This document shows positions 4,397 to 49,600 of a stretch of DNA of 64,000 bases, in pieces. The notes beneath the pieces are model-generated. The model saw only the letters and a program-made list of their open reading frames with translations. It was not told where the DNA came from and did no database searches. This DNA comes from Eledone cirrhosa (lineage: Eukaryota): the NCBI GenBank assembly GCA_964016885.1, contig OZ024743.1:57288001-57352000 (forward strand). Direction: 5' to 3'. Made by a program: the position numbers and the translations under genes. Each line of letters starts with the position of its first letter. Within the stretch, counting starts at the first letter, position 1.

Positions 4397-7300
4397 ATGG
4401 CCAATATAAGAGTTGGATGTGTGAATGTACGCGGCCTGGGTATGCCCTGGAAACAGGGCAAACTCTTAAACGACCTCAGGTCACACAGTATGGATGTAGT
4501 AGCCATTTGCGAGTCCAGGATCCACAGCGAGCGACAGCTAGCCCCCATCTTCGATGACTTTGAGATCTATGCATCTCTCTGTCGGCCGGGGGGTGCGGGC
4601 GGGGTTGCCGTTTTGCTGCGAAAACATCTGGGCCTCGTAACACAGACGGTACATCTGGACCCGGAGGGTCGACTGGTGGTCCTAGACGTTGACGGCAGTG
4701 AAGGTGGAGCCTTCAGGCTGGTGGCTGCATATGCCCCATCCGGGACACCGCGGCCAGACTTCTTCAAACGTCTAGAGACTTTTCTGGGAACGTCCCGCTC
4801 CTTGCTTTTAGTGGGCGACTGGAATGGAATCCTAGATGCACGTTGGGACTATGTGGGAGCATGTCCCGATAAAGGGGGGTGTAACAACCTGAAACAGTTA
4901 ATCAACCGATTTGACCTGGCCGATAGATATCGACTAGATTTTCCGACTGTGCCACTGTGGATGTGGACTAATCGTAGCGGAACATCTAGATCGTATCTAG
5001 ATAGGGTTCTAGTTAGAAATAAGGATAGGGACATGTTATGCTGTCCACAAATGTTCATGGTTGCCTATTCAGATCACAAACTAGTGACCTGCATGGCTAA
5101 CCTTGATAGAACCCATAGACAAGGACCCGGCTACTGGAAGCTGAACTTGTCGTTACCGACATGCAAAGCCTACAGTAGACGGATTAGCACTTTAGTTAAA
5201 CAGCACTTGACAGGGGCCATTGTCAACAACAGATGGTGGTACTCTCTCAAGAGGGCAGTTAGATTAGACTCGTTAGTTTTTAGTAAAGAATTAGCGTTAG
5301 ATAGAAATAGAACCGAGAAGGAACTGGTAGATAAAGTAGAAGAGGCAATTAGAAGTGGCAACGTAGCCAGCATGCTAGCAACGAGAGCGTCCTTGGACCA
5401 GTTCTTCGACGCAAAGCACGAGGGCTGCGTTGTCAAATACGTGCTCTGGGAAACGAGGGGCCAAAGCTGCTAGCTGGGCTCGAGTGACGGAGGCAAAAAG
5501 TGGCAACAAGTCCACGATTCGGTCTTTGAAGGACCAAAACGGACGCGTGATACGTGAGCCGAAGCAGATGTGTGCGGCCTTTCAGCGGCACTTTGCTCAA
5601 CTGTTCGGGCAGGGCGGCGCGCCGGGAGGGTCTATGGATTTCGGTCCATACCTCGACGGGCTACCGCGACTCTCGGACAGCGAGACAAAGTTCTGCGAAA
5701 AGCCGATTTCAGCCGCTCAGATAGGGGACGCGCTGAGCCAATGCGGCAAACGCAAATCTCCAGTTCTCGACGGTCTACCCTACGAATTTTACGTGGCAAT
5801 GCCGGACTTATTCTCCGGTCTCCTGGAAGCGGTTTACTGCAACTGGCAACAGAACGGGAGAATTCCCAGTTCTGTGACCGGGGGCGTAGTCACACTAGTC
5901 AGGAAGGACGAGAATAAGGGGGATGACATAGGCAACTTCCGGCCCATAACTCTGCTAAACACAGAGTTACAGATTTTGGCCAAGGTATTGGCAAAGAGGC
6001 GCTTATCGTCGAGAACCTGGTGGGAGAAGCGCAGACATGCACAATCCCGACCAGGTCCATACACGATAACCTCCACCTCATGCGATACATCATAGAGAGG
6101 GTAGGGTGTTAACCCGGCTTCAGTGGGGCCCTGATCAACTTGGATCAGTCTAAGGCTTTCAATAGGGTTGACGATCGTTACCTGGATGCTCGAGGCGGAA
6201 GGCTTCGGACCCGTGTTCAGGGGCTGGAATGCTGCAATGCACAACAGCAACATCTGCTCAAGAGTCAAGGTGAATGGCTACCTCTCGGAGCCGTTCCATA
6301 TCACGCGATCCATTCAACAGGGATGCCCTCTCTCCTCCCTTCTGTACGTACTGACTCTCGAGCCACTACTGCGGAAGTTGAAGCTATTGCAGGGCATCCC
6401 TCTGGAACCGGGACTGCGCAAAGCGGCGTCGGCCTACGCCGACGACTTCACAGTATTGGTGTCGAGCGCTTCGCAAATCGAGGAAGTCGGCACCTTACTG
6501 AAGGAATACGAAAGTTTCACAGGAGCGAAGCTGAACCGGGACAAGTCCATCGGTTTGCAACTCGGGTCGTGGAGAGGCAAACTGATGCCTTCCGATGGCG
6601 TCGTCGGACGCTGGACGGAAGGACCGGTAAAGCTGCTCAGGGTCTGGTTTGGTCCGGACCTCCAGGTGGAGAAGAACTGGAACGAGGTGACGGCCAAGGT
6701 GTTTGCACTCACCCAGAAGTGGGCCGAGTGTAAACTATCCTTGACAGGTCGAGCGGAAGTGGCGAACACTTTTATAGCGTCCGCCATCTACTACCGCTTG
6801 ACCGTCGTGCCTTGCCCAGCCAAAACGCTCACCAAAATGGAGCGCGCGCTCTTCCAATTCCTTTGGAAGAGAAGATCTATCTGCTGCCAACACTCTTCCA
6901 ACGGAGGGCTGGGGATGCTGTGGCTGACGATGCGCAAACACGCGCTCAGGCTGCGGCATCTCTACGTATTCCTCACCGGACAACCGGTGTGGTTCCCCGA
7001 GGAAAATGGGCGACTGGCACATCGAATGTGCCCAGGCACTCACAGCCCTCTGGCAGGCAGACCCGGCGATCAGTGGAGACTCCACTTCGTCATTCTATAG
7101 AGGGTTGATCCGCAGCAAGTGCGACGATGCGCTCGGTGAAACTCTAGGCGTAGAGGAAGATGAACTGGCCAGTCTGTTCGGTAGGACCTTCCGCCCGGGA
7201 CCGATGGAGAACTTCCAAAAGTCCCTGGCCTGGCAGCGCTACCGAGGAGCTCTACCAGTTTGAGACAAGCTCTACAGACATGAGCGCCCGGGCAGGGACC

Positions 7301-7732
7301 CTGCAAAAAAGATCTGTCCGAGGTGCGTGCGAGACGAAGAAACCGTCGCGCACGCATTCATACACTGCTCGGGCGTCACCGACCTGTGGAGCTATGTAGA
7401 ACGACTATTGTCGCGGGTGGGACCAATCCGGTTGACCACCGAGTCCATTGTCATGATCCAACCGCCACCCTCCTTCAAAAACGAAGGAGAGGCGGTTTTC
7501 ATTTGTGTGATAGCTATGGCGAAAGAGGTTGTATGGTGGACAAGGTTGAAAGGGCTGAGGTCAGACACCTTTCTCTCCGGCCAACAACTGATTCTTTTTT
7601 TTCAAATACCACTTTGGAAGAAGAATCAGGATGGAAAGAGAGGTGCTGTACCCCAGCAAGTTTTATGAAAGGTGGGTGAAAGTGGCGAGAATGGCCCGAG
7701 TGAATGGGCCTTCTCTCTATAACAGCCTGTAG
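4397..7732 (+). pseudogene. Tx1 copy C ORF2 (APE endonuclease-RT-CCHC), frameshifted
   Basis: APE motifs NVRGL, ESR, YAP, GDWN, YLD and SDH; RT motifs NFRPITLLN, QGCPLS and YADD. Split across ORFs 4397..5473, 5430..6095, 6168..7100, 7006..7263 and 7327..7668. Confidence 0.92.
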
Positions 7733-7940: not shown

Positions 7941-8026
<86 letters not shown>

Positions 8027-17365: not shown

Positions 17366-17891
17366 AGATAATCTATGGCTTTTACTTTGAACTCTGCTAC
17401 ATCATACGTCAAAACTTTACGTTAGTGAGATGTGATTTGGCTGAATCATGCGTCAAAGATTTTTATAGTTTTTATATTTTCGTATTTGAAGGTTGAGAAT
17501 GTTTCAAAGGAAAGGATTTTCCTTTTAGCAACAGTTGCCATATTCTATGAAGAATTGTATGTATGCATGGATTCAAAACCCCCGGTGGAGTCGTATGGCG
17601 TGTCTTGGACGTTTTAATCCTGGCGAAGCTCATCTCGTCTCCAGGTATGAACAGCCGATTTCTTCCAAAGAAAGTGGGAGTGAGAAAGAGAAATAGAGGA
17701 ATGGTACTTTTTTTTTATCGACATCGAAAGTTAGAAAGGCAAAATTGATTTAACATAGCGCAGAGAGCCGGACTGAATACCATTATTATTATTATTATTA
17801 TTATTATTGTTGTTATTCCTTGAATCTCAGTCATTGATGTTGGTTAACTGGAAAGTCCGTTGGATTGAATATCAAGCCACTACCTGCAGCC

Positions 17892-20800
17892 TCAGATATT
17901 CAGGACGTATCGGAGGGTTCTTGCTGTTCCAAGCAAGCATGCCCTTTGAAGCGTTCCAAAAAGCGTGAAGGGGCCGATTTTCTTTAACCATCCCTGGAAA
18001 CTTTTGGAGATAGTCCCCAGTGCGCCTATGACAATCGGGATCACTTTGACTTCATGGCAGTTCCAAATCCTTTTCACCTCCCACTTTAGGTCCTGGTATC
18101 GGTTAATTTTCTCCCTCTCCTTCTCTTGCACTCTCGTGTCGAACGGGCAGGCCACATCCACAATCAGACACGATCTTTTTTCTTTGTCCACAACCACCAG
18201 GTCAGGTCTATTGTGTTCCAGTTTTTTGTCCGTCTGTATCCTAAAATCCCACAGCACCTTCACCTGATTGTTCTCCATCACCGCCTCTGGCCTATGCTCA
18301 TACCATTTCTCAGAATGTGGTAAATTGTTTACTTTGCACAGGTGCCAGTGGATCACCCTGCCCATCACATCGTGTCTCCAGCCCTTATAGTGGGTCTGGG
18401 CTAGGTGTTTACACTCGGACACAATGTGAGCCACAGTCTCCTCTCTCTCTCCACAGATCCTGCACAGTGGGCTAGCCTCCTCCTTGTAAATATGGTGCTT
18501 CAACCACTTCGTTTTGAGGGCCTGCTCCTGTGCAGCCATTAGCATTCCTTCTGTAGCCTTTTTGAGGTCTCCTCTTCTCAACCAGTTCCGTGTCTGTGGA
18601 TCTCTAAATTCAGTTTTCTCAAAGAAGGTACTATGAAGGGATTTTCCCTTAAGGCTGCTCTTCCTCCTTGATGTTATTTCCTCCTTGGACATCCCCTGGC
18701 CTACTGTCCCCTCCTTCAGTACAGTTCTGAGCATTGGCTCCTTACTATAGGTCACGTATTTGTATAGGTTGTTTTTCTCCATCTGAACACAGTCCTCTAT
18801 GCTGATAAGACCTCTTCCACCCTCAGATCTCCTTAGGTAGAGTCTATCGACATCACTCCTCTTGTGGAACATGTTGTAGATAGTCAATAGCTTCCTAGTC
18901 TTCCTATCCATTTCTTTTTGTTCAGCAACATTCCATCTCAGAATTCCCGCACTGTACCTAATAATAGACACAGCTCGGGAATTTACTGCGCTTATGGCAT
19001 TTCTGCTGTTCAGATGTGACTTCAATACGCTCCTTACTCTCCGAATGTATTCAATTCTTAACAATTCCTTCATTTTTTTGTTCTTTATGCCATCAGCCTC
19101 CACAACGCCCAAATACTTGTATCCTTCCTCAGAGTCAATTTCCTTTATCATCTCACCTGTTGGTATCTGGATCCCGTTACTTCTGCTCAACCTACCCCTC
19201 CTCATCACAATGACTCCACATTTACCAATACCAAACTGCATACATATATCACTGCTGAAAATACGGACAGTGTCAACAAGCACATCCAACTCCTTCTCAC
19301 TTTTCCCGAAGAGCTTAAGATCGTCCATGAAGAGGAGGTGATTGATGGTAAGCTCTCCCCTTCCCAACTTGTATCCTGCTCTCACTTTTCGCAGCATAAT
19401 GGTCAAGGGCATCAGGGCAAGGACAAACAACAGAGGGGACAGGCTATCTCCCTGGAAGATACCTCTCTTGATCTTCACGCTTCCCAAGGATACTCCAGTT
19501 GATGTCAACTCTGTCTCCCAGGACCCCATACTCCTGCCTAGCAACTGTCTGATGTTATCTGCCACCCTGAAGATCTCCAGGCTTTTGGTGATCCAAGAAT
19601 GAGGCACCATGTCAAATGCCTTTCTGTAGTCTATCCATCCCATGGCAAGATCAGTGTATCTCCTCCTGCAATTCCCCATTACCATCTTATCAATAAGTAA
19701 CTGGTCCTTTGTACCACGTGACTTCTTTCGGCATCCTTTCTGTTCGTCCGGTAACAAGTTGTTTGTGTGGAGGTGATGGTAGATTTCCTCAGACACAATG
19801 CTCGTCAACAGTTTCCACATTACGGACAGACATGTGATAGGTCTATAGTTGGTAACATCATTACCCTTGATTCGGTCTTTCATTATCAGAACTGTGGTAC
19901 CTTTTGTCAACCACTCTGGCACCTCACCCGACACCAAGCAGTCATTGAACATGGCCGTCAGCTTCGGGTGGAGGGATGTTAAATGTTTAATCCAATACCC
20001 CTGCACACCATCTGGGCCTGGTGATTTCCAGTTGGTTAGTTTTTTGGCCTGCCCCTTAAGAGTTTCAACTGTGATACTCAAATCAGTTTGTTGTTGTGCC
20101 TGCTCACCGATCTCCCTCTGTACTGTCTCAATCCACCCTGCCTGGACATTATGTCTAACATCCTGCTCCCATATTCCTCTCCAGAATGTTTTAGTTTGTT
20201 CCGCCTCAGGGATCAAGTCGTTGCCTCTTTCTTTCCCTTCAAGCTGTCCAAACAGCATCTTCTGGTTGTTGTCGAACATGCGGTTCTGTCGATACTGGCT
20301 GACTCTGTTCTCGTATCGCCTGATTTTTGCACTCTTTGCTACAATGCGTTGCTTCAGTTCCTCTATGATAATATTTAGCTTTTTCCTCCTAGTTTTGTAC
20401 TTTATTTCCAGTCTATTTTTAGTGTCTATGTTTTTTAGTGTCCCATTCAGTAGGGACTCAAGCTTTCCAATGTCATTTCTCATTTCCCTGATTTGACCAC
20501 TCAGTCGTTTCTTCCACCAAGGCTCTGCTCTTTCTTGTCTGTTGTTTCCTCTCGCTTTTATACCAAGTAGTTTCCTCACCGTATTTGCTGTTGCTTTGAG
20601 GATATTGTTGCACTGGTGAAGGCTCCTCGCCTCAAGGTATGGGATGACTTTTTTTACCTTAGCTGTTGTTTCTTTTAACTTTTTCCTGTCTACAAATCTT
20701 AGGTTCATAGGTCTCCCACTATCATTGTTCAATTCATCTACCACTAAGTTTAGGATATCTACCAAATCTTGTCCTAGCCCGTCAGCATTCATCTCCTCAG

Positions 20801-21317
20801 TGGCCGTATCTCTGTTCCAGGTATTATTTATCTCAGCATTCAGATCATTGTTTGTATCGGGTGGTTTCTCCGTTCTCTCGACCTCTTCACCTTCATTTCC
20901 CACTGGCTCGTTTGCCTGGCATACTCCACCCTCCATCTCCAAGCTAATCTCTCTGCCCAGTTCCTCCAGTTCCAGCTCGCTTATCCACCCATTAGTTCTT
21001 ATTACCCGAGCCTGCCCGGCCAGTTTTTGTTCATCTAATTTAAATGGACCAATCTCGTTCCAGATGTTATGCATCCTTTTCCTATAGCCTTTCTCCTTGG
21101 GGTTACTCTTCAGGTAACATTGCATAACAGTTCTATTCAATTCTTTCGTCCAGTTGGTTCTGGTCCCTTTCCTTCTTCTTCTTCCTCCGACACCAGCAGT
21201 ATTTGGTTGACAGCCAGGTCCCTGCTGCTGAGCCAGGGAGCACCTGTTGGGTGAGAGTCTGTCACATGACATTCTAGTCTCCATTTCACCGTTATTCGAA
21301 CTGTTTAGGTTCGACAT
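17892..21317 (-). CDS. Reverse transcriptase with C-terminal CCHC finger and restriction-like (PD-D/ExK) endonuclease, 1141 aa
   Basis: Motifs include [58 protein letters not shown] and RPDLVV..VDVACP..EREK. No stops or frameshifts. Confidence 0.95.
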   Translation of the reverse strand: MSNLNSSNNGEMETRMSCDRLSPNRCSLAQQQGPGCQPNTAGVGGRRRRKGTRTNWTKELNRTVMQCYLKSNPKEKGYRKRMHNIWNEIGPFKLDEQKLAGQARVIRTNGWISELELEELGREISLEMEGGVCQANEPVGNEGEEVERTEKPPDTNNDLNAEINNTWNRDTATEEMNADGLGQDLVDILNLVVDELNNDSGRPMNLRFVDRKKLKETTAKVKKVIPYLEARSLHQCNNILKATANTVRKLLGIKARGNNRQERAEPWWKKRLSGQIREMRNDIGKLESLLNGTLKNIDTKNRLEIKYKTRRKKLNIIIEELKQRIVAKSAKIRRYENRVSQYRQNRMFDNNQKMLFGQLEGKERGNDLIPEAEQTKTFWRGIWEQDVRHNVQAGWIETVQREIGEQAQQQTDLSITVETLKGQAKKLTNWKSPGPDGVQGYWIKHLTSLHPKLTAMFNDCLVSGEVPEWLTKGTTVLIMKDRIKGNDVTNYRPITCLSVMWKLLTSIVSEEIYHHLHTNNLLPDEQKGCRKKSRGTKDQLLIDKMVMGNCRRRYTDLAMGWIDYRKAFDMVPHSWITKSLEIFRVADNIRQLLGRSMGSWETELTSTGVSLGSVKIKRGIFQGDSLSPLLFVLALMPLTIMLRKVRAGYKLGRGELTINHLLFMDDLKLFGKSEKELDVLVDTVRIFSSDICMQFGIGKCGVIVMRRGRLSRSNGIQIPTGEMIKEIDSEEGYKYLGVVEADGIKNKKMKELLRIEYIRRVRSVLKSHLNSRNAISAVNSRAVSIIRYSAGILRWNVAEQKEMDRKTRKLLTIYNMFHKRSDVDRLYLRRSEGGRGLISIEDCVQMEKNNLYKYVTYSKEPMLRTVLKEGTVGQGMSKEEITSRRKSSLKGKSLHSTFFEKTEFRDPQTRNWLRRGDLKKATEGMLMAAQEQALKTKWLKHHIYKEEASPLCRICGEREETVAHIVSECKHLAQTHYKGWRHDVMGRVIHWHLCKVNNLPHSEKWYEHRPEAVMENNQVKVLWDFRIQTDKKLEHNRPDLVVVDKEKRSCLIVDVACPFDTRVQEKEREKINRYQDLKWEVKRIWNCHEVKVIPIVIGALGTISKSFQGWLKKIGPFTLFGTLQRACLLGTARTLRYVLNI

Positions 21318-21384
21318 TTAAACACTCTTATCGAGGATTGGCGAATGTATGGCTACATAACCACCGGTGAATTACTGGTGGTGA

Positions 21385-22362
21385 TATTGGTGGTGAAATT
21401 ATCTTTAGTGAAATTATCGTTAGTCGCGTATATGTGTTGACATTTACCCATAATATTGGAATTAAACATCTTGTTAAAACTAAAACTTGATTTTGATTTT
21501 TTTTTTTTGATTTTGACCAGGTCATTAATTCAGTCTATTTATTTATTTTGATGTTTTCCTCTTTTAGTGGGAATTCTACAATGTAGCAGGGGGTAGCGGG
21601 AGAGAATAGCGGCGGTAGTGATATTGAGGCAGCGGCGGCGGTGGCGGTGCTGTGCTAGCAGCAACTAGCAGGAGGTAGTGGGAGAGAATAGCGGCGGTAG
21701 CGATAGTGAGGCAGCGGTGGTGGTGATGTGGTCGTATTACTGTAGTGATGGTGTTGAAGTTGGAGTAGAAATTTGAGTCGACTTGACCAGAGTTTTCATC
21801 GTGGTAGTGGTGGTGGTATTGGTGGTGAAATTATCTTTAGTGAAATTATCGTTAGTCGCGTATATGTGTTGACATTTACCCATAATATTGGAATTAAACA
21901 TTTTGTTAAAACTAAAACTTGATTTTTATTTTTTTTATTTTTTTTTTTTATTTTGACCAGGTCATTAATTCAGTCTATTTATTTATTTTGATGTTTTCCT
22001 CTTTTAGTGGGAATTCTACAATGTAGCAGGGGGTAGCGGGAGAGAATAGCGGCGGTAGTGATATTGAGGCAGCGGCGGCGGTGGCGGTGCTGTGCTAGCA
22101 GCAACTAGCAGGAGGTAGTGGGAGAGAATAGCGGCGGTAGCGATAGTGAGGCAGCGGTGGTGGTGATGTGGTCGTATTACTCTAGTGATGGTGTTGAAGT
22201 TGGAGTAGAAATTTGAGTCGACTTGACCAGAGTTTTCATCGTGATAGTGGTGGTGGTATTGGTGGTGAAATTATCTTTAGTGAAATTATCGTTAGTCGCG
22301 TATATGTGTTGACATTTATCCATAATATTGGAATTAAACATTTTGTTAAAACTAAAACTTGA
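21385..22362. repeat. About 435-bp tandem repeat (about 2.25 copies) in the Dong 5' region
   Basis: Units start at 21385, 21817 and 22257 (TATTGGTGGTGAAATTATCTTTAG). They are near identical except for poly-T length. Confidence 0.92.
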
Positions 22363-22796
22363 AGCAATAGTAATAGTAATTATTATTATTATGCTGAGAT
22401 TGGTGGTGGTGGTGGTGACATTGCCGTTATCGGGCTGTTGTGTTTAGTGTACACAGAGGGGTGATGGGGTAGGTGGTGTATCTAGTTTCTGATGTTGGTG
22501 AAATTGCTGTTATTTGGCTGTTCTATATAGTGTAGACATAGGGGGTTTTCTTCCATTTATAACCATTTTCTTTTTGAATATAAAATGTATAATACAAAAT
22601 TGAATATTTGAGCGATATAACAATATATTGTGGATCCGAATTTTTTGGGACTCAAGCTGGATGTGTTATGCAACATTTGTACTAAGAATTGTTATTTCAC
22701 AATTGATTTAAATATTTTAAAAAATCAAAACTTACGGGAGCGATTTCTCGACCTTCTATCCACCATGTGTGTCTTCTTCTTCTTCTTCTTCTTCTT

Positions 22797-22859
<63 letters not shown>

Positions 22860-22860
<1 letters not shown>

Positions 22861-23702
22861 CTTGAATCTCAGTCATTGATGTTAGTTAACTGGAAAGTTT
22901 GTTGGAATGAATATCAAGCCACTACCTGCAGCCTCAGATATTCAGGACGTATCGGAGGGTTCTTGCTGTTCCCAGCAAGCATGCCCTTTGAAGCGTTCCA
23001 AAAAGCGTGAAGGGGCCGATTTTCTTTAACCATCCCTGGAAACTTTTTGAGATAGTCCCTAGTGCGCCTATGACAATCGGGATCACTTTGACTTCATGGC
23101 AGTTCCAAATCCTTTTTACCTCCCACTTTAAGTCCTGGTATCGGTTAATTTTCTCCCTCTCTTTCTCTTGCACTCTCGTGTCGAATGGGCAGGCCACATC
23201 CACAATCAGACACGATCTTTTTTCTTTGTCCACAACCACCAGGTCAGGTCTATTGTGTTCCAGTTTCTTGTCCGTCTGTATCCTAAAATCCCACAGCACC
23301 TTCACCTGATCGTTCTCCATCACCGCCTCTGGCTTATGCTCATACCATTTCTCAGAATGTGGTAAATTGTTTACTTTGCACAGGTGCCAGTGGATCACCC
23401 TGCCCATCACATCATGTCTCCAGCCCTTATAGTGGGTCTGGGCTAGGTGTTTACACTCGGATACAACGTGATCCACAGTCTCCTCTCTCTCTCCACAGAT
23501 CCTGCACAGTGGGCTAGCCTCCTCCTTGCAAATATGGTGTTTCAACCACTTCGTTTTGAGGGCCTGCTCCTGCGCAGCCATTAACATTCCTTCTGTAGCC
23601 TTTTTAAGGTCTCCTCTTCTCAACCAGTTCCATGTCTGTGGATCTCTAAATTCAGTTTTCTCAAAGAAGGTACTTTGAAGGGATTTTTCCTGAAGGCTGC
23701 TC
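22860..23702 (-). mobile_element. R4/Dong element, 5'-truncated copy 2
   Basis: CCHC plus RLE and 3' UTR nearly identical to copy 1. Bounded by (TTC)n(TTA)n at 22772-22859 and 23703-23771. Confidence 0.93.
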
Positions 23703-23723
23703 CTTCTTCTTCTTCTTCTTCTT

Positions 23724-23754
<31 letters not shown>

Positions 23755-23771
23755 TTATTATTATTATTATT

Positions 23772-24993
23772 CCTTGAATCTCAGTCATTGATGTTGGTTA
23801 ACTGGAAAGTCCGTTGGAATGAATATCAAGCCACTACCTGCAGCCTCAGATATTCAGGACGTATCGGAGGGTTCTTGCTGTTCCCAGCAAGCATGCCTTT
23901 TGAAGCGTTCCAAAAAGCGTGAAGGGGCCGATTTTCTTTAACCATCCCTGGAAACTTTTGGAGATAGTCCCCAGTGCGCCTATGACAATCGGGATCACTT
24001 TGACTTCATGGCAGTTCCAAATCCTTTTTACCTCCCACTTTAAGTCTTGGTATCGGTTAATTTTCTCCCTCTCCTTCTCTTGCACTCTCGTGTCGAATGG
24101 GCAGGCCACATCCACAATCAGACACGCTCTTTTTTCTTTGTCCACAACCACCAGGTCAGGTATATTGTGTTCCAGTTTCTTGTCCGTCTGTATCCTAAAA
24201 TCCCACAGCACCTTCACCTGATCGTTCTCCATCACCGCCTCTGGCCTATGCTCATACCATTTCTCAGAATGTGGTAAATTGTTTACTTTGCACAGGTGCC
24301 AGTGGATCACCCTGCCCATCACATCATGTCTCCAGCCCTTATAGTGGGTCTGGGCTAGGTGTTTACACTCGGATACAATGTCAGCCACAGTCTCCTCTCT
24401 CTCTCCACAGATCCTGCACAGTGGGCTAGCCTCCTCCTTGTAAATATGGTGTTTCAACCACTTCGTTTTGAGGGCCTGCTCCTGCTCAGCCATTAACATT
24501 CCTTCTGTAGCCTTTTTGAGGTCTCCCCTTCTCAACCAGTTCCATGTCTGTGGATCTCTAAATTCAGTTTTCTCAAAGAAGGTACTATGAAGGGATTTTC
24601 CCTGAAGGCTGCTCTTTCTCCTTGATGTTATTTCCTCCTTGGACATCCCCTGGCCTACTGTCCCCTCCTTCAGTACAGTTCTGAGCATTGGCTCCTTACT
24701 ATCAGTCACGTATTTGTATAGGTTGTTTTTCTCCATCTGAACACAGTCCTCTATGCCGATAAGACCTCTTCCACCCTCAGATCTCCTGAGGTAGAGTCTA
24801 TCGACATCACTCCTCTTGTGGAACATGTTGTAGACAGTCAATAGCTTCCTAGTCTTCCTATCCATTTCTTTTTGTTCAGCAACATTCCATCTCAGAATTC
24901 CCGCACTGTACCTAATAATAGACACAGCTCGGGAATTTACTGCGCTTATGGCATTTCTGCTGTTCATATGTGACTTCAATACGCTCCTTACTC

Positions 24994-24994
<1 letters not shown>
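23772..24994 (-). mobile_element. R4/Dong element, 5'-truncated copy 3
   Basis: Open 377-aa C-terminal frame at 23846..24979. The 5' junction runs into (TTA)n at 24995-25043. Confidence 0.93.
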
Positions 24995-25043
<49 letters not shown>

Positions 25044-25251
25044 GGCGACCTACGTAGTAAATCGTATCATTGTGAGCTCCGCAAAGGTTTGTTATTTTCG
25101 TTTGTTAAAAATTGTCATTTATGGAAAATTTTATTGTTAACTGTTTATAAGCGCACATACATTGTTTTCCGAAAAGGACACCAAAAAAGATTGGGGCCTT
25201 GTGCCCAAAATTTAAACTTTTATTATTATCAAAAATTTCTTTGAAAAAAAA

Positions 25252-27239
25252 ATGGCTAATTCACCTCTGCACCAAGCAGCTGAAAGCCTTCCTCACAAAT
25301 TAACACCTCACACCGACACCACCATTGTAAATGTTACTACATTTGCCAATACAAAAAAAAATATAAGCAGTAGCAATATTTTAAATTTGTATCAGGCAGA
25401 CATTCAATTCACGCCATTACCAATGACTGCAGGTGTTAAAGCCTCCACCACCACCACCACCGCGTCAACCACCACCCCTACCACCACCGCGACAACAGAA
25501 ACAAAAGAAGAAAAAAATAAATTAACTCGTGATGTCGAAACGAAATCAAGCAAAATGGACTCTTCCCCACCAAAGACGACTGACGTCACCACCACCACAA
25601 CTGAAACTAAAATTAATATTAACACAAATAACGATAGCAACAACAACAACAATGACATTATAAAACCGACCCTCAGTTTCGCCAGAGTAGCAAAACAGTT
25701 CGAAGCATTTACGGTAACTCAGGAGGATTTAGAAAATGCCAAACAAATGGTAAAGAAAGATGGGTACAGGGTCAGCCTCACCCCCCCACCTAATAAAATG
25801 GAGCATCAGCGCCTATGCACCGTGTCGTATAGAACAATAAATGTAAAATCGCGCCGAGTGGAACGGGCATCCGAGTCCCAAATCCAAAAAGCTTTGGGAC
25901 ATGTGTGGGCAAGAAAAACCCACATCAGACGTGGGCAGAAGTATGGAACCGTGGACGTGTTCTTTGAAACACCAGAGGAGGCTAGAGAACACTCCATGGC
26001 CCCATTAAGAAGTGACGACTTCACACTCGTCCCAAGCTATTGTGGCCAGAGACTCGTAAAGATCAGGGTGACCCACGTTCCACCGGCCATCGAAATTCCC
26101 TGGCTAATAGCGGCCGTCCTCGCCGGCATCGAAGCCAACACAAAAATAATAGCAATAGCAAAAGAAAAGCAGGAGAACTGGTCCGGATCTGGGATGGAGC
26201 TCCTGATCCAAGCGGACCAAAAAAGCGTTGAGGAGATCCCAGAGGTAATAGACCTCACTGACGGCAGCCACCTCACGGTAATTGTCGAGGGCAGAAGACC
26301 TAGGTGTGTCGTTTGTGGTGAAGGAACCCACCTAAGGGCTTTCTGCCCTCAGGCTAAAAGGTTGAGGCCACCTCTCCTACCCACCCCAGTGACACAACCA
26401 TCAACACCACCAGTAGCAGAGATGGCAGCAACAACTGTAGCAGCAACAACAGAAGCAACTATAACAGCAACAACCGCAGCAACAGTAGCAAAACCAACAC
26501 CACCACCACCACCAGCAAAACCAACACCACCACCACCCAACGCTTCAGAACTAGCACCAGCGCCTACACCATCCACCACGCCACAACCAAAACTAACGCA
26601 TGTGGAGGATTTTCCACTCCCCGGCCTATCACAACTGGAGACAGATTGTGACGACGAGGAGTGGGAAACGATATCCGGAAAAAAAAAGGAAACCAAAAAA
26701 GAAAAAATTCTATTCCTTCCCCCTCCAAAAACAAAATACAGAGGGAAACAAATAAATTAAGAAACAAAAAAGTTAGGACAGATATGCCACCATCCACACC
26801 AGCATCACCAACCCCATCAACCCAAACACCAACACCATCACCATCATTAACCCCAACACCATCATCACCTACACCACAAAAGTCACCAAAATGCGAAACA
26901 GAAACAAACCCACAACAAACGCAAACAAAACAAAACAACCAAAACGATACACACTACACAGCATTAAATTTGAACAACAAGCAATTATTACACTACATCC
27001 AACACAACACCAGCATCACAGAAAAAGACTACACAACAACCCCAAAATTCACACCACCTCCACACATACAAATCACTCGCATCACACAGAAAACGTACAT
27101 GACACTAAAACAAAAATTCCCCAAAGACATCGGAGACTTCCGACAAGCACTCTCCAGGAGGATTTATAAGGACATCCTTCCTGAGGAGGCCACAAGCAGT
27201 GAAAAGGATGGAAAAACCGTCCTTCCCTACGAGAAGTAA
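25252..27239 (+). pseudogene. Tx1 copy D ORF1 (zinc knuckle), with one frameshift at an A-run near 26680
   Basis: CVVCGEGTHLRAFC knuckle. The C-terminal domain homologous to copies C and E continues in ORF 26661..27239. Confidence 0.85.
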
Positions 27240-27278
27240 GGTAAGTGGTCTTTCCCATCTTTTCCACTCCTTTTCAAC

Positions 27279-30200
27279 ATGACCTCACTCAGAATAGGCA
27301 GCATAAATGCGCGTGGCTTGGGGTCGTCATGGAAGCAGGGCCACCTGCTCAACGACCTCATGTCACTAAACATAGATGTAGTGGCCATCAGCGAGACCAG
27401 AATCTCCGAAGCACAGGCTTTCGCACCGATCCTCGGCGGCTACGATGTGTACGCATCTCCCAGCCGTCCGGGATCGGGGGGAGGAGTTGCTGTGCTTTTT
27501 CGGAGAGGTTTGGATCTTGCCATACGGGCCATCTTCATGGACCCAGAAGGTAAGTTGGTGGTGCTGGACGTGACCAGCGGAGACGGCCAAGCTTTCAGGT
27601 TAGTGGTCGTCTATGCCCCGACAGGAGCAGGGCGGCCTGATTTCTTCCGGCGTCTGGAGACCTTTCTTGGAACGTCCCGCTCTTTAGTGTTAGTGGGAGA
27701 CTGGAACGGGATTTAGATGCACGCTGGGATTGTGTGGGATTAGTGGATAGGGAAGGAGGGTGCAAGAGTCTCACCAACCTGCTCAGACGTTTTGAACTGT
27801 CTGACAGGTACCGAATGGATTTCCCGAATGTACCAATGTGGACTTGGACAAATCGCATAGGGTCATCCAGATCATATCCAGATAGAGTATTTTGTAGGGA
27901 AATAGATAGGTCTAGCATAGGCTGTCCACAATTCAAGATAGTCAGCTACACGGACCACAAATTCGTGATCTGTGTGCTTGACTTAGATAGGCTTCATAGA
28001 CGAGGACCCGGCTACTGGAAGCTAAACGCGTCCTTACCAGCGCGCAAGGCCTACAGAGACCGGATTAGCGAACTAGTTAAGCGGGCGTTGACGGGCGCCA
28101 TCGTCAACAACAAGTGGTGGTTTGCTCTGAAAAGAGCAATTAGAACAGAGTCCATTAGGTTTAGTAAGACTTTAGCAATAGAGAAAAATAGAGCAGAGGG
28201 AGAATTAGTTAGAAAATTAGATGAGGCGCTTAGCAAAGGCATCGCGACCGACGTACTTGCGGCGAAATTGGCCCTTGACCAATTCTTCAATGCAAAGCAC
28301 GAAGGCTGCGTTGTCAGAGCTAGGGTGCGTGCTCTCAGACACGAGGGGACGAAAGCCGTTCAATGGGCCCGAGTGGCGGAGGCGCGCCGTGGCAACAAAG
28401 CCACGATCCGGTCTTTGGTGGACCACGACGGGCGCATGCTACTCGATCCCGGGCAAATGTGTGAAGCTTTTCAGCGACACTTCGCTCAACTGTTCGGGGG
28501 CAGTGGCGAGCCGGATCGAGGGATGGACTTTAGTGTCTACCTCGACGGACTGCCGCGGCTTTCGGCCACTGAGGCGGAGTGTTGCGAAAAGCCGATAACA
28601 ACCGCTGAAGTACGGGAGGCAATGACTAGTTGCACAAGGGGTAAATCGCCTGGTTTGGATGGTCTGCCCTATGAACTTTACGTACAAATGCCAAACTTGT
28701 TCGGAGGCCTCTTGGCGGACGTCTACTGCAACTGGCAACAGAACCGGAAAATTCCCAGCTCTGTGAGCCGAGGAGCGGTGGCGCTGCTGAGAAAGGATCC
28801 GAACAAGGGGGATAACATAGATAATTTTAGGCCCATAACTCTGCTAAACACAGAGTTCAAGATTTTGGCGAAGGTGCTAGCAAAGAGGTTGGCGCTTGTC
28901 GTTGGTGGTCTGGTGGGAGAGGCACAGACATGCGCCATTCCCGACAGATCCATCCACGACAACCTCCACCTCATGCGATACATCGTAGAGAGGGTAGCTA
29001 GGGAACCTGGCACGGGTGGGTCTTTGATCAATTTAGATCAGTCGAAAGCCTTCGATAGGGTCGACCATCGTTACCTAGAGGCAGTCCTGAGGGCGGCTGG
29101 CTTTTGGCCCATCTTCAGAGGCTGGATCGCTGCCATGCACAGCAACATCTGCTCTGTAGTGAGAGTGAACGGTCACCTTTCGGAACCGTTCAACATTATG
29201 CGCTCGGTCCGCCAAGGATGTCCCCTCTCGTCCCTATTGTACGTATTGACTCTCGAGCCATTACTGCACAAACTGGAGACGTTGAGGGGGATCCCGCGCG
29301 AACTAGGATGCGGAAGATCCGTGTCAGCATATGCCGACGATGTCACCGTAGTGGTGTCGAACGCCAAACACATCGAGGCGATCGACACTACACTAAGAGA
29401 ATACGAAGCGGTGACAGGAGCAATGATCAACCAGGAAAAGTCAGTGGGCCTGCAGCTCGGCACCTGGAGAGGCAGGTCCATGCTGTCCAACAGCGTCGTC
29501 GGGCGCTGGACAGACGGACCGGTTAAATTGGTAGGGGTCTGGTTCGGTCCAGACCTCCAGACGGACAAAAACTGGGACGAGGTGACGAGCAGGGTGGCTT
29601 CTCTCACCCAGAAATGGGCCGAGAGGAAGCTATCCCTGAAAGGTCGAGCGGAGGTGGCTAACGCGTACATCGCGTCCGTCATCTACTACCGCCTGACCGT
29701 CTTACCTTGTCCAAAGCCCCGCCTGACTGCGCTGGAGCGTTTGCTCTTTCGCTTCTTGTGGAAGGGACGCGCTCCGATGGTCAGGCGGTCCATCTGCTGT
29801 CAACACCCGCTACGTGGAGGGCTGGGCATGCCGTGGCTGATGATGCGCAGGCACGCGCTCAGGCTACGACATCTCCACCTCTTCCTCGACGGTGATCAGG
29901 TGTGGTCGCCGTTTGCTAGACACGTTTTTCCCCAGCTCGTCTCCTTGACGGAGCTGCAGTCCTGGGTCAAGCGAAGACCGAGAGGGAGCGCTTGGAGACT
30001 GGAATGTCTTCAGGCGCTCACAGCTCTCGACCAATCGGGCAATGTGATCGGTGGAAACTCCACCTTGGCGTTCTATAGGAGATTAGTGGAGGGGAAGAGC
30101 GACAACGTACTTGGAGAAACTCTAGGCGTCGACGAAAATCAACTAGCCAATCTCTTCGGAAGGACTTTCGGGCCGGGGCCTATGGACAACTTCCAGAAAT

Positions 30201-30697
30201 CCCTGGCCTGGCAGTGCTACCGGGGTGCTTTGCCAGTTCGGGATAAACTTTACAGGCATGGAGGTGCCGTCAGCCGGGCATGTCCGAGATGCGCACAGGG
30301 CGACGAAACCGTCCTGCACGCACTCGTCCAGTGTCCGAGCATTGCTGACTTGTGGGTTTATGTCGAACACCTGCTGTCACGTGTAGGACGGATCCAGCTA
30401 TCAGCTGAGTCCATCGTGAGGATTGCCCCGCCCTCTTCCTTTAGCCGGGAAGGGCAGGCCGTTTTTATCTTTCTGGTGGCCATGGCGAAAGAGATAGTAT
30501 GGTGAACACGTTTGAAAGGGCTGAAGACGAGCACTTACCTCTTCGGTGATGCCCTGATTAACTTTTTCAAATTTCATCTGAAAAGGAAAATCAGGGTAGA
30601 GAGGGAAGTGCTCTCTTCCCAGCATTTTGTTGAAAGATGGGTGAGAGAAGCAAGTATGGCCCGAATGAATGGGCCTTCTCTGAGTATGTGTCTGTAA
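27279..30697 (+). pseudogene. Tx1 copy D ORF2 (APE-RT-CCHC), with a frameshift near 27711 and a TGG>TGA stop at 30503
   Basis: Motifs include NARGL, GDWN, TDH, QGCPLS, YADD and CPRC..ETVLHALVQC. Confidence 0.93.
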
Positions 30698-30976
30698 ATT
30701 AAAGTTGGAAAACTGGGAGAGGGCACTTGCCCTGGTGGCCAGGGCCACTGTGGTCTTTTAATGGGCTTTCTCCACAAATGTCCCTCGGAAGTCTCCCCCC
30801 TATTGGGGAATTTTTCTTTGTTATTTTATTTAATCCTCTATTTTTTTTTACACGCAGAAATGCCCATTTGTACCGTCCTGTATTGTCCTGTACTGTCCTT
30901 AATGTCTACTTTATGTGAACCCTTGTGGTTAATAAAGAAAACATTATTATTATTATTATTATTATTATTGTTATTA

Positions 30977-33008
30977 CTCTTTGAGTCTCAGTCATTGATG
31001 TTAGTTAACTGGAAAGTTTATTGAAATGAATATCAAGCCACTACCTGCAGCCCCAGTTATTCAGAACGTATCGGAGGGTTCTTGCTGTTCCCAGCAAGTA
31101 TGCCTTTTGAAGCGTTCCAAAAAGCGTGAAGGGGCCAATTTTCTTTAACCATCTCTGGAAACTTTTTGAGATAGTCCCTAGTGCGCCTATGACAATCGGG
31201 ATCACTTTGACTTCATGGCAGTTCCAAATCCTTTTTACCTCCCACTTTAAGTCCTGGTATCGGTTCATTTTCTCCCCCTCCTTCTCTTGCACTCTCGTGT
31301 CGAATGGGCATGCCACATCCACAATCAGGCACGATCTTTTTTCTTTGTCCAAAACCACTAGGTCAGGTCTATTGTGTTCCAGTTTCTTGTCCGTCTGTAT
31401 CCTAAAATCCCACAGCACCTTCACCTGATCGTTTTCTATCACCGCCTCTGGCTTATGCTCATACCACTTCTCAGAATGTGGTAAATTGTTTACTTTGCAT
31501 AGGTGCCAGTGGATCACCCTGCCCATCACATCATGTCTCCAGCCCTTATAGTGAGTCTGGGCTAGGTGTTTACACTCGGATACAATGTCAGCCACAGTCT
31601 CCTCTCTCTCTCCACAGATCCTGCACAGTGGGCTAGCCTCCTCCTTGTAAATGTGGTGTTTCAACCACTTCGTTTTGAGGGCCTGCTCCTGCGCAGCCAT
31701 TAACATTCCTTCTGTAGCCTTTTTAAGGTCTCCTCTTTTCACCCAGTTCCATGTCTGTGGATCTCTAAATTCAGTTTTCTCAAAGAAGGTACTATGAAGG
31801 GATTTTTCCTGAAGGCTGCTCTTTCTCCTTGATGTTATTTCCTCCTTGGACATCCCCTGGCCTATTGTCCCCTCCTTCAGTACAGTTCTGAGCATTGGCT
31901 CCCTACTATCAGTCACGTATTTGTGTAGGTTGTTTTTCTCCATCTGAACACAGTCCTCTATGCTGATAAGACCTCTTCCACCCTCAGATCTCCTTAAGTA
32001 GAGTCTATCGACATCACTCCTCTTGTGGAACATGTTGTAGATAGTCAATAGCTTCCTAGTCTTCCTATCCATTTCTTTTTGTTCAGCAACATTCCATCTC
32101 AGAATCCCCGCACTGTACCTAATAATAGACACAGCTCGGGAATTTACTGCACTTATGGCATTCCTACTGTTCAGATGTGACTTTAATACGCTCCTTACTC
32201 TCCGAATGTATTCAGTTCTTATCAATTCCTTCATTTTTTTGTTCTTGATGTCATCAGCCTCCAGAACGCCCAAATACTTGTATCCTTCCTCAGAGTCAAT
32301 TTCCTTTATCATCTCACCTGTTGGTACCTGGATTCCGTTGCTTCTGCTCAACTTACCCATCCTCATCACAATGACTCTACACTTATTAATACCAAATTGC
32401 ATACATATATCATTGCTGAAAATACGGACAGTGTCAAGAAGCACATCCAACTCCTTCTCACTCTTCCCGAAGAGATTAAGATCGTCCATGAAGAGGAGTT
32501 GTTTGATGGTAAGCCCTCCCTTTCCCAACCTGTACCCTGCTCTCACTTTTCGCAGTACACTGGTCAGGGGCATCAGGGCAAGGACAAACAACAGAGGGGA
32601 CAGACTATCTTCCTGGAAGATACCTCTCTTGATCTTCACGCTTCCCAAGGATTCTCCAGTTGATGTTAACTCTGTTTCCCAGGACTTCATACTTTTGCCC
32701 AACAACTGCCTGATGTTATCTGCCACCTTGAAGATCTCCAGGCTTTTGGTGATCCAAGAATGAGGCACCATGTCAAATGCCTTTTTGTAGTCTATCCATC
32801 CCATGGCAAGACCAGTGTGTCTCCTCTTGCAATTCATCATTACCATCTTATCAATAAGTAACTGGTCCTTTGTACCACGTGACTTCTTTCGGCATCCTTT
32901 CTGTTCGTCCGGTAACAAGTTGTTTGTGTGGAGGTGATGGTAGATTTCCTCAGACATAATGCTTGTCAACAGTTTCCACATGACGGACAGACATGTGATA
33001 GGTCTATA
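30977..33008 (-). mobile_element. R4/Dong element, 5'-truncated copy 4 (more divergent)
   Basis: 646-aa open frame at 31041..32981 running from RT to RLE. The 5' junction is at (TTC)7, 33010-33031. Confidence 0.92.
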
Positions 33009-33513
33009 ATTCTTCTTCTTCTTCTTCTTCTAGCAGTGAGAGTGTTGTTAGTATAAATATGTGAAGACGCGGGGTTCAGCTGTTAGGGTGTTTGGCTGGC
33101 AATCGAAACGGCGTGAGTTCGATTCTTGCTCGTGCATTGTGTTCTTGAGCAATATATTTAACATTTATTTCACATTTTCTCCAATTCACGCAGCTAGCAA
33201 AAAATGAGATATAACTGTAATTCAAAGAACAAGTCGTGTCAGACACTGTGTTAGGCTGAATCTCCCTGAGAAATACGTTAAGGATACAGGTGCTCGTTGC
33301 TCGTGTAGACTGTTCTGTTGGTCGAATTACTGGATCACGCTTCTTCAGAACTGATGGAGGTTCAAGACTGCACAAAAACGCTATTTTATCAAGTATTTAA
33401 AATAGTCAGGATATTGTTAGTTTAATTATATAGTAAACATATAGTTCAACATTTACTATGTGTATAGAGACATAACACAAGAGTGAGGGCTGAAAAGCGG
33501 AGTAAACTTTTTT

Positions 33514-46686: not shown

Positions 46687-49600
46687 ACTAGACCAGAAAA
46701 ATGCGCAAGCTCAAAAGAGCCACAGAATGTTATAATAAACCTTCAAAAGTGTGGGACTAGAGTTGTTGCTCAAAAATATTGTAAACATTATCTATCGTAC
46801 ACTAACATACATACACATGAAAAAGACATGAACAACTCCACAGATACATCTACACATAAAGTTTCACCTCGTCAAGGAACTGAGATTTCCAACACCGAGG
46901 CTAACAACGATAACAACAACAACCACAGCAACACCACACCAAAAAAAGAAAATGTCTTTCGCTGAACAGTGAACAAAAAACAAGATTTTATAAATCTTGA
47001 CATCTTCAATGCAAGAGATGTGCTCCAGCAAGGGAGAAAATTTGTAACTTTCGAAGAGAAGGGTGGGTTTAGAATTAAATCACCCCTTGAAATAAAGGAA
47101 GACACAGTTAGAAGATCAGTGACCTTTAGGACTGTGTCCAATTCCACGAGAAAGCCATTATTTGTTAGTCAAGCAGATATAGAAGCTACTTTCAAGGAAA
47201 TTCTAGCAAATATCGACTTTCTCCAACGAGGAAAACCGTACGGAAACACTTCCGTACTGTTTAAAAGCGAGGCAATTGCCCCAAAACATTCTGTGACACC
47301 AATGGTGTCAAAAGCATTCACCTTTTTCCCTACATACATGGGAAAAAGGACTAAAAAACTAAAAATAAAAAATATACCCCCAAACATTAACATCTGGTCG
47401 ATGTTGGCTGGCTTCCTAGAGACAGAAACTGATATGATTCTTTCGATACGAAAGTCTATTCGACAAAGGTGGGTGGGTACTGATTTGGAGATTCTGTTGC
47501 AAATGAGGCCGGAGAGAATCTCCAAAATACCCGAAAGAGTCGTCATCGATGATAACAACAAAATAAACATTTCGGTAGAAGGACGAAAATTTCATTGCTT
47601 TCGCTGTGGTAGCACAGCACACCTAAAAGCCTCTTGTCCTTCACAAACACACCACAACAACATCATTAAAAAAACACTATTACTAACACCAACACCAAAA
47701 CAACCACCACCACCACAAGTACAACGACAGACGAAACAAGCAACCACACCAAAACAAACAGCCACTCAACCAACAACAACAGAAAAAACAGAGACAACAC
47801 CCCTGAAGAACACAGCCCCACCCATCCCACTCCATCAAACACTACCACAAACACACACACCGAAACACCACCACCACACAACATACCCCTACCCCACACT
47901 CCTGACGATGATTATTCATCGACGGATGAAGCTGCTTCTCCTTCTTTAAGTGAAGAAGAGGGAGAGCCGCGGAAATCTAAAAAACAAAAAAGAAGAGACA
48001 CCACAAAACCCCCAAAACTCCAATCACCAACGCCAACACACAACCACAGACACAAACAACAACACAAACAACATCACAGTCAAACATCCCCCTATCAGCA
48101 AAACCAACACCAATACCACCCCAAACACAAGCACCCACCATAAAAAGAAAACTCCCGGACGAACAACAAACTAAAACAACACAACAAAAACACAAACAAC
48201 AATACGCATACATCAACACAAACAACAAGAGTTTGATGGAGGTCATCTCCCAAAACCCCAAGGTGGAGACGGAGGGCAAAACTTTCGTTAAGTCAGAATT
48301 GTCTCCACACCTTAAACTTATAAGGATTTCTATGGGAACCTATAATGACCTGAAAAATAAATTTTCACAGGACGTGGGCAACCCTTGCCAGAAACCCATC
48401 AATCGCGTCCTGTTAAAATGTTTCCCCACCCCACCCAACACCCCATCCAGCACCCAAATGGAGATTGAACAACCCGATCTCCAGGAAACGAAAAAGTAAG
48501 TGCACCTTTCGTCCTTTTTCTTCAACTCTTCTTCACCAACATGGCTAGTTTACGAGTTGGAAGCGTGAATGTGCGTGGCCTAGGGATGCCCTGGAAACAG
48601 GGCCAACTTTTAAACGACCTTAGGTTACACGGTATGGATGTGATAGCCATCACCGAGTCCAGAATCCACAACAGGCAGCAACTAACCCCCATCTTCGACG
48701 ACTTTGAGATCTACGCATCTCTCTGTCAGCCAGGAGGTGGAGGTGGAGTGGCTGTCATGTTTCGGAAGAACCTGTACGTCGAATTACAGCAAGTACACTT
48801 GGACCCGGAGGGTAGACTGGTAGTCCTAGACGTGAACAGTATTGGTGGTGGAGCCTTCAGACTGGTGGCCGTTTATGCCCCGACCGGGCAATCGCAATCA
48901 CGGCCAGACTTCTTTAAGCGTCTAGAGTCTTTTCTGGGAACGTCTCGCTCCTTACTTTTAGTGGGGGACTGGAATGGTATCCTAGATGCAAGATGGGACT
49001 ATGTGGGAGCATGTCCCAGTAGAGGGGGGTGCAACAGCCTCAAAACTTTAATCGGCCAATTCCAACTGGCCGATAGGTATCGACTGGATTTCCCGACTGC
49101 ACCACAGTGGATGTGGGCAAACCGCAGCGGGACATCTAGATCGTATTTAGATAGGGTCTTCATTAGAGAAAGGGACAAGGAGATGTTAAGTTGTCCACGA
49201 ATGCACATGGTTGCCTATTCAGATCACACATTAGTCGTCTGCTTAGTCAACCGTGATAGAACACATAAACAAAGACCCGGATAATAGAAGCTGAACGTGT
49301 CATTGCCGGTACGTAAAGCTTACAGTGAACGGATAAGTAGACTAGTAAAGCAACAATTAACGGAGCCATCGTCAACAATAGATGGTGGTACTCTCTCAAG
49401 AAAGCAATTAGAATAGAATCGATAGGGTTTAGCAGAGAGTTAGCCTTAGAGAAAAACAAACTAGAAAGAGAACTAGTAGCCAAGGTAGAGGAAGCACTTA
49501 GAAGTGGCAACGCGGCTAGAGTGTTAGCGTCGAGAACGGCACTGGACCAGTTCTTTGATGCAAAACACGAAGGCTGCGTGGTCAGAAGCAAAACACGTGC

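Follow-up and report, generated by a model that had tools for sequence, protein, structure and literature searches.

GAA repeats at the 5' junctions of Dong-like LINE copies in Eledone cirrhosa and their possible origin at TAA targets

Results

The DNA analysed here (the window) is a stretch of 64,000 nucleotides from Eledone cirrhosa (assembly GCA_964016885.1, contig OZ024743.1, positions 57,288,001 to 57,352,000 of the forward strand), which carries an array of four copies of a young Dong-like long interspersed nuclear element (LINE). The array is read on the minus strand, the element strand, on which all features below lie unless stated otherwise, and each copy has a TAA tail. A run of (GAA)7-18 is located at the 5' junction of three of the four copies; this had been claimed in a preliminary description of the locus and, like its order and repeat counts for the array, was confirmed when the sequence was re-read. 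Perfect GAA/TTC runs of at least seven units occur three times in the 64 kb, each of them adjoining a Dong 5' end, and as a sequence pattern GAA at Dong 5' ends is far above chance in the window.

In the direction of the element, the array begins with unique DNA that ends in CTA, without TAA, followed by (GAA)7 (33010..33031) as the 5' junction to copy 4, where only two nucleotides (AA) overlap with the element. Because this run has neither TAA upstream nor an element G as a seed, it is likely older than the insertion of copy 4, or else its TAA was removed by a target deletion. Copy 4 itself (30977..33009; 2,033 bp) is 5'-truncated within the reverse transcriptase (RT) region, its best relative among the loci compared being at 97.7%, and its TAA tail (30943..30976), with one AAC unit inside, is broken by a Tx1-type LINE. 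The latter (25044..30942, plus strand) has an apurinic/apyrimidinic endonuclease (APE), RT and zf-RVT, with its open reading frame 2 (ORF2) split over two frames, and sits within a TAA run in the opposite orientation to the Dong copies. Beyond it, (TAA)16 (24994..25043) forms the 5' junction of copy 3 (23772..24993), which is 1,222 bp long and 5'-truncated. Between copies 3 and 2 lies the compound (TAA)6(GAA)17 (23703..23771), which serves as the tail of the former and the 5' junction of the latter. Copy 2 (22860..23702; 843 bp) is again 5'-truncated, with its cut point within an AAG-GAG-rich stretch of the element. In the next compound, (TAA)11(GAA)18 (22772..22859), the copy 2 tail is followed by GAA units that are fused to copy 1 at its head motif GAAGAAGAC, with loss of the leading GG. 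Copy 1 has a typical fused head. Copy 1 (17818..22771) is full length, with an intact ORF (21317-17892), and lies outside the interval treated in the preliminary description. Its tail, AATAACAAC(AAT)9 (17782..17817), passes into unique DNA without GAA.

The copy 1 ORF encodes 1141 amino acids, with an RT (Pfam RVT_1, 8.6e-23), then a CCHC finger at residue 952 and a PD..D..K restriction-like endonuclease pattern at residue 1037, all in the single-ORF layout of Dong / R4 elements. Matches to restriction-enzyme families were weak and below the cut-off, no Exo_endo_phos (APE) domain was found in the ORF, and the nearest solved structures were R2 proteins. A SANT/Myb-like domain was sought in the first 140 residues, where no Pfam match was found at E up to 5; the published detection of the diverged N-terminal domain of this clade relied on a profile-profile search (PMC7998251). 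None of the 120 relatives listed, out of 1,297 from a homologue search, was named Dong or R4, and the label Dong-like rests on architecture and target rather than on a tree that includes reference RTs. An Rfam scan of 21300-22900 returned no ribozyme family, and no clear hepatitis delta virus (HDV) fold was seen in single-sequence folds of the 5' region, which cannot model pseudoknots.

By exact patterns, the 3.0-Gb genome contains 9,515 3' ends of this family (family 1) and 4,650 of another Dong-like family (family 2; 1215 amino acids, with a protein about 40% identical to that of family 1), as well as 1,031 full-length heads whose type is common to both. The head starts GGGAAGAAGAC, and the element therefore carries its own short GAA motif at its very start. 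TAA specificity, which the preliminary description had taken from what is known of Dong, was borne out. A TAA tail was present at 29 of 30 unselected 3' ends, with GAA after the tail in none of the 30, and among near-full copies other than those of the window TAA was the last repeat run upstream in 29 of 29, again without GAA after the tail. Two of these 29 relatives had an upstream run of at least four AAG units and one had three. The (TAA)n target thus lies on both sides of the copies, as in Dong / R4 elements.

The 5' regions of the two families showed further features. The 5' untranslated region (UTR) of copy 1 contains a 440-bp tandem duplication (21376-22362), of which relatives L032-L060 appear to vary in unit number. 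A 5' head of about 380 bp, with about 80% identity, is common to both families (L125, L002, window 22400-22771) despite the low likeness of their proteins, and some family-1 bodies (e.g. L157-L159) bear a head variant common in family 2. The sequences suggest that the families have swapped 5' ends.

Among the first 100 full-length heads listed, 12 had (AAT)3(AAG)7 or more directly upstream. At loci that had not been selected for GAA, at least four AAG units were present at 5 of 70 other full-length junctions versus 0 of 59 other truncated entries, three of which were probably internal, leaving 56 real ones (25 internal UTR matches were excluded). A rate of about 1.4% for truncated copies was obtained by scaling from 9 of 60 sampled compounds, and in eight of these nine junctions the run continues into an element G, AG, AAG or a near match. 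It had been proposed that GAA abuts 5' ends regardless of the truncation point, which holds for the array in the window only. Enrichment of GAA at 5' junctions elsewhere in the genome, on which the proposal had been made to depend, was found for full-length copies and was nearly absent for truncated ones. From family rates of about 12% and 1.5%, respectively, and with junctions assumed to be independent, the probability of three GAA junctions in four is about 1e-4; the window is therefore an extreme array and not the family rule.

The GAA runs at Dong 5' junctions are pure triplet runs of 4 to 73 units. One upstream AAG was counted at 635 intact heads, two at 6 and four or more at 65, while fused heads had two units in one case, three units in three cases and about five or more in 49.

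To follow the target, 40 of the 49 GAA-fused heads were sampled together with 20 of the 65 intact heads with at least four AAG units upstream, one of which (L288) was dropped as misplaced. TAA was found upstream of the GAA run in 38 of 40 fused heads and, scored by eye, in 19 of 19 intact heads, i.e. in 57 of 59 full-length GAA-headed copies. GAA after the copy's own tail was seen in 1 of 38 fused and 4 of 16 intact heads that were traced (5/54), and in four of these five it was the 5' junction of the next copy; the background, scaled from 34 of the 60 sampled compounds, is about 4.7% (p about 0.1 by hand). Conversely, none of 35 copies with (TAA)(GAA) after the tail had GAA at its own 5' end. 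These counts ruled out GAA as the normal target of the family, and they also ruled out, as a rule, the duplication of a TAA/GAA boundary upon insertion, both of which had been suggested; boundary duplication may apply to a few arrays, including that in the window. GAA/TTC on both sides of the insertions, which would characterise a Koshi-type element, was seen in only 5 of 54 and 0 of 35 copies in the same two counts. A GAA-targeting subfamily was ruled out as well, as relatives of the window's 5' UTR have TAA upstream. Eighteen of the approximately 9,515 family-1 3' ends pass directly into GAA without a TAA tail, so a GAA target could be used on rare occasions.

Throughout the genome, compounds of the two motifs were strongly polar, with (AAT)3(AAG)7 at 1,180 places versus 31 in the reverse order; single-unit AAG seeds were nearly equal on the two sides of AAT (5,945 and 5,683). 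The 60 sampled compounds, which were the first places on contig 1, comprised 22 Dong 5' junctions (13 full-length and 9 truncated) and 38 other sites, half of them (19) following a Dong tail and followed by other DNA, the remaining 19 touching no sense Dong end. As the same polar compound also forms away from any 5' junction, it need not have been written by the RT. Of the first 100 seeds, 23 were expanded, 5 of 19 at heads versus 18 of 81 elsewhere (p 0.76), and among the first 30 seeds opened, at least five units were present in 2 of 12 Dong junctions versus 6 of 18 others. Exactly two AAG units before a non-A base were found in 11 of the 5,945 seeds, so the two-unit gap is general. When the other one-base variants were counted 3' and 5' of AAT, respectively (AAC 173/1033, ACT 40/1363, GAT 429/251, AGT 228/137 and CAT 51/37), G variants leaned to the 3' side and C variants to the 5' side. 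The (TAC)7(TAA)3 order occurs at 1,363 places versus 40 in reverse, and the 25 sites examined resemble host microsatellites, some of which were later hit by Dong or Tx1. One repeat family was also seen to contain an (AAC)n(AAT)5 compound, internal to the repeat and variable in length (L396, L397, L399, L401-L404, L411-L413).

Family 2 accounted for 44 of 57 assignable GAA heads, compared with 13 of 40 single-AAG controls (40 sampled of the 635). The excess holds after adjusting for nearest-neighbour divergence (p about 1e-4), with the first letters of the head being the same in both families, and it was present among young copies in the GAA-head comparison (family 2, 12 versus 4; family 1, 2 versus 16; Fisher p 0.0003). 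An excess at matched divergence suggests a step at the time of insertion. Age had an overall effect (p 0.003 unadjusted; p 0.023 given family), and within family 1 the copies with GAA were older (p 0.001).

An out-of-phase junction, AAGATAA before GGG, was found at 25 places; 23 were examined, and family 2 made up 21 of the 22 that could be assigned, scattered over the tree. Family-2 heads often have GATAA before GGG (L416, L435, L186, L190), and the RNA of this family may in truth begin with GATAAGGG, in which case annealing of its ATAA to the target could account for the uniform junction. Six junctions enter the head and then restart (L049, L180, L272, L416, L422, L435), for which a plain tandem duplication is an alternative reading.

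Other repeats were recorded at the locus and among the retrieved loci. The ends of the Tx1-type family adjoin TAA runs at many other retrieved loci, and older relatives of this element, at about 70% identity, lie at 14-1897, 4424-7716 and 48559-52020 of the window, some of them beside (TATC)n runs (2153-2250 and 7941-8026). A further long element on the opposite strand (L236 1-4914, L228, L278, L279) ends at TAA runs with fixed sequence, and its ORF fragments resemble the Tx1 type by eye. A short interspersed repeat (L003, L025, L153, L246, L258, L276, L284) ends in TAA runs that later received Dong copies, and Dong may mobilise this repeat.

Discussion

We consider it slightly better than an even chance (a probability of about 0.52) that TAA-specific insertion of the Dong-like element creates an AAG seed, more often in family 2, and that this seed is then lengthened by a polar slippage that operates genome-wide. 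The observations behind this proposal are that TAA stands on both sides of nearly all copies, that GAA lies between the target and a head of known sequence, that the rates differ by class and by family, and that the compounds are polar. The element would insert into (TAA)n, and the last AA of the target would be joined to the first G of the element or to its GAAGAAGA motif, giving an AAG seed of one to three units. The formation of the junction would set the seed, presumably more often in family 2, and replication slippage in the host could lengthen it by the same one-sided process that gives rise to the (AAT)n(AAG)m compounds. The polarity could perhaps come from mispairs, as slippage from AAT to AAG would need G-A and the reverse order would need C-T; G variants on the 3' side and C variants on the 5' side would be in keeping with a slipped strand in which G-A or G-T mispairs are tolerated.

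Several observations weigh against this proposal. Age has no effect on GAA in family 2 (p 0.61), and very young copies (L283, L299, L124 and L296, at 99.6-99.8% to their nearest relative) already have 8-25 units, so the lengthening would need to be fast. In one copy (L147), 57 units abut a clipped end of the element, where there is no AAT to slip on, and another (L123) is without TAA. The mispair rule is fitted strongly by AAG, AAC and ACT, weakly by GAT and AGT (1.7-fold) and not at all by CAT. In addition, the flank of one repeat family was found at 10 of 20 (CAA)(TAA) sites examined; the AAC count is inflated by it and is therefore not independent support. The compounds away from Dong may have grown in the opposite direction, with AAT added to a pre-existing GAA run, and the comparison of rates would then carry less weight. 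Finally, an empty allele was not seen when three contig sets (one sample) and one restriction-site-associated DNA (RAD) run were aligned to the upstream flank; the alignments passed over the repeat without a joint that spans it and so favour neither side, and the contig sets are possibly from the genome's own sample.

The preliminary description had also suggested that the RT writes GAA at the 5' junction. Part of this stands for full-length copies, given the family bias at matched age and the few intermediates of two or three units, and it is countered by the compounds that form without any 5' junction. A specific version, which we regard as a tentative possibility and as the chief competitor of the proposal above, is that the end of the upstream target primes on the cDNA copy of GAAGAAGA, and that the element RT (chiefly the family-2 enzyme) or a repair polymerase of the host re-copies this motif repeatedly in the manner of telomerase before continuing or restarting at the head. 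A single event might then produce 5-70 GAA units, and several hundred GAA microsatellites might have been seeded in this way. It would account for a rate about ninefold higher at full-length heads, which offer the template, for the strong bias between families whose first letters are identical, for the near absence of fused heads with two or three units, for the long runs on very young copies, and for the 57-unit run at the clipped end. The restarting junctions would also fit, although they can be read as tandem duplications. A template with more than one repeat unit, as used by telomerase, is indeed present in the head (GAAGAAGA) and is missing at most truncated junctions. Against re-copying, AAT edges without a 5' junction, even those downstream of the priming nick, match the Dong junctions in polarity, in the two-unit gap and in expansion rate; the repeat is not confined to ends handled by the RT, being found after tails and at element-free sites, and the age effect in family 1 is also unfavourable. 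Simple slippage of the first strand on the RNA was ruled out, since no heads that kept GG upstream of an expanded internal run were present among the loci examined.

Seed formation followed by slippage was also weighed against three other accounts. Purely post-insertion microsatellite evolution, in which the element merely puts a G after a TAA run, draws on the genome-wide polarity, the equal rates per seed, the overall age effect and a known origin of compound microsatellites (PMC2644718), but it is very unlikely, as it leaves unexplained the several-fold excess of GAA heads in family 2 at the same divergence and with the same junction letters. It is also very unlikely that GAA, or a TAA/GAA boundary duplicated upon insertion, is the target. 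Copies 2 and 4 of the window are consistent with such a target, as are the three successive GAA junctions in two other arrays (L296-L297; L287-L129), the 3' ends that pass directly into GAA, and an excess of adjacent GAA-head pairs (4 versus 0.6-1.9 expected; p 0.004 to 0.12, depending on the estimate of adjacency). Yet the tail is not followed by GAA in 49 of 54 GAA-headed copies, copies lying before (TAA)(GAA) have none at their 5' ends, empty perfect (GAA)7(TAA)3 boundaries number only 31 in the genome, and truncation, which should not affect the choice of target, changes the rate. GAA junctions may have propagated locally within arrays. The least likely account is inheritance through the RNA, whereby a transcript would include the upstream repeat of its donor locus and a GAA donor would pass its run to full-length daughters. 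The AA|GGG junction is uniform in 61 of about 120 intact heads, GAA is present in 6 of 7 copies of the youngest family-2 clade, and no ribozyme that would trim the 5' end was found in the Rfam scan and the single-sequence folds. Nearest relatives were, however, uncorrelated in run length (p 0.24) and junction type (p 0.45), with a concordance of state at p 0.087, GAA did not cluster in the ORF tree of family 2, copies with the AAGATAA junction do not form a clade, and truncated copies are not covered; inheritance was thus left without support.

Compared with the known Dong elements of the R4 clade (Bombyx Dong, DongAg, DongBg and the ostracod Dong1/2), the copies described here share the single ORF with RT and C-terminal restriction-like endonuclease and the (TAA)n target (PMC3812793, PMC7998251), and the junction phase TAA|G is that of Bombyx Dong, as in the primer of PMC3774820. 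They differ in that about 12% of full-length copies have a GAA run separating the target from the head, a feature undescribed in the parts of the literature compared. Bombyx Dong also has an HDV-like ribozyme, and none was detected here by folds that cannot model pseudoknots. In another cephalopod, Octopus vulgaris, five recently active Dong-R4 families have been reported (PMC13282606).

The 5' junctions of R2 include annealed, joined, snap-back and extra-template types as well as short untemplated additions (PMC3774820, PMC11331408). R2 and the present elements have in common that their 5' junctions vary and show microhomology, target deletions and short additions, whereas the addition here is a long pure triplet run, and the terms "reiterat" and "slippage" do not appear in the main text of PMC11331408. 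According to published work, compound microsatellites arise when an imperfect unit at the end of a repeat is duplicated (Kofler et al. 2008, PMC2644718). The compounds here are similar in that AAT and AAG are one substitution apart and the second motif borders the end of the first, even at sites that are not Dong 5' junctions (38 of the 60 sampled). They are unlike those compounds in that the imperfection comes from the 5' junction of a LINE and in that the order is one-sided; the available text of PMC2644718 treats strand conformation, not 5'-3' order. Koshi, a TTC-targeting APE-type element of pufferfish, is likewise a non-long-terminal-repeat element with GAA/TTC runs (PMC3812793), but it belongs to another endonuclease class, and in our copies GAA lies on one side only, with TAA as the target. 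A full-text literature search, with most subscription papers outside its reach, returned no paper that treats GAA runs next to Dong 5' ends or the order in which AAT and AAG follow each other in compounds.

The GAA junctions leave Dong's known specificity for TAA unchanged. The one-sided order of AAT and AAG is a testable clue to slippage at a mismatched unit, and the two young high-copy families, with near-identical heads and different GAA rates, form a pair in which the second-strand priming of a LINE with a restriction-like endonuclease, a step that is unsettled for R2, could be tested. With an estimated 430 of the 1,180 long (AAT)(AAG) compounds located at Dong 5' junctions (scaled from 22/60), the front end of a LINE, besides its tail, is a birthplace of microsatellites, adding one more route by which new ones arise.

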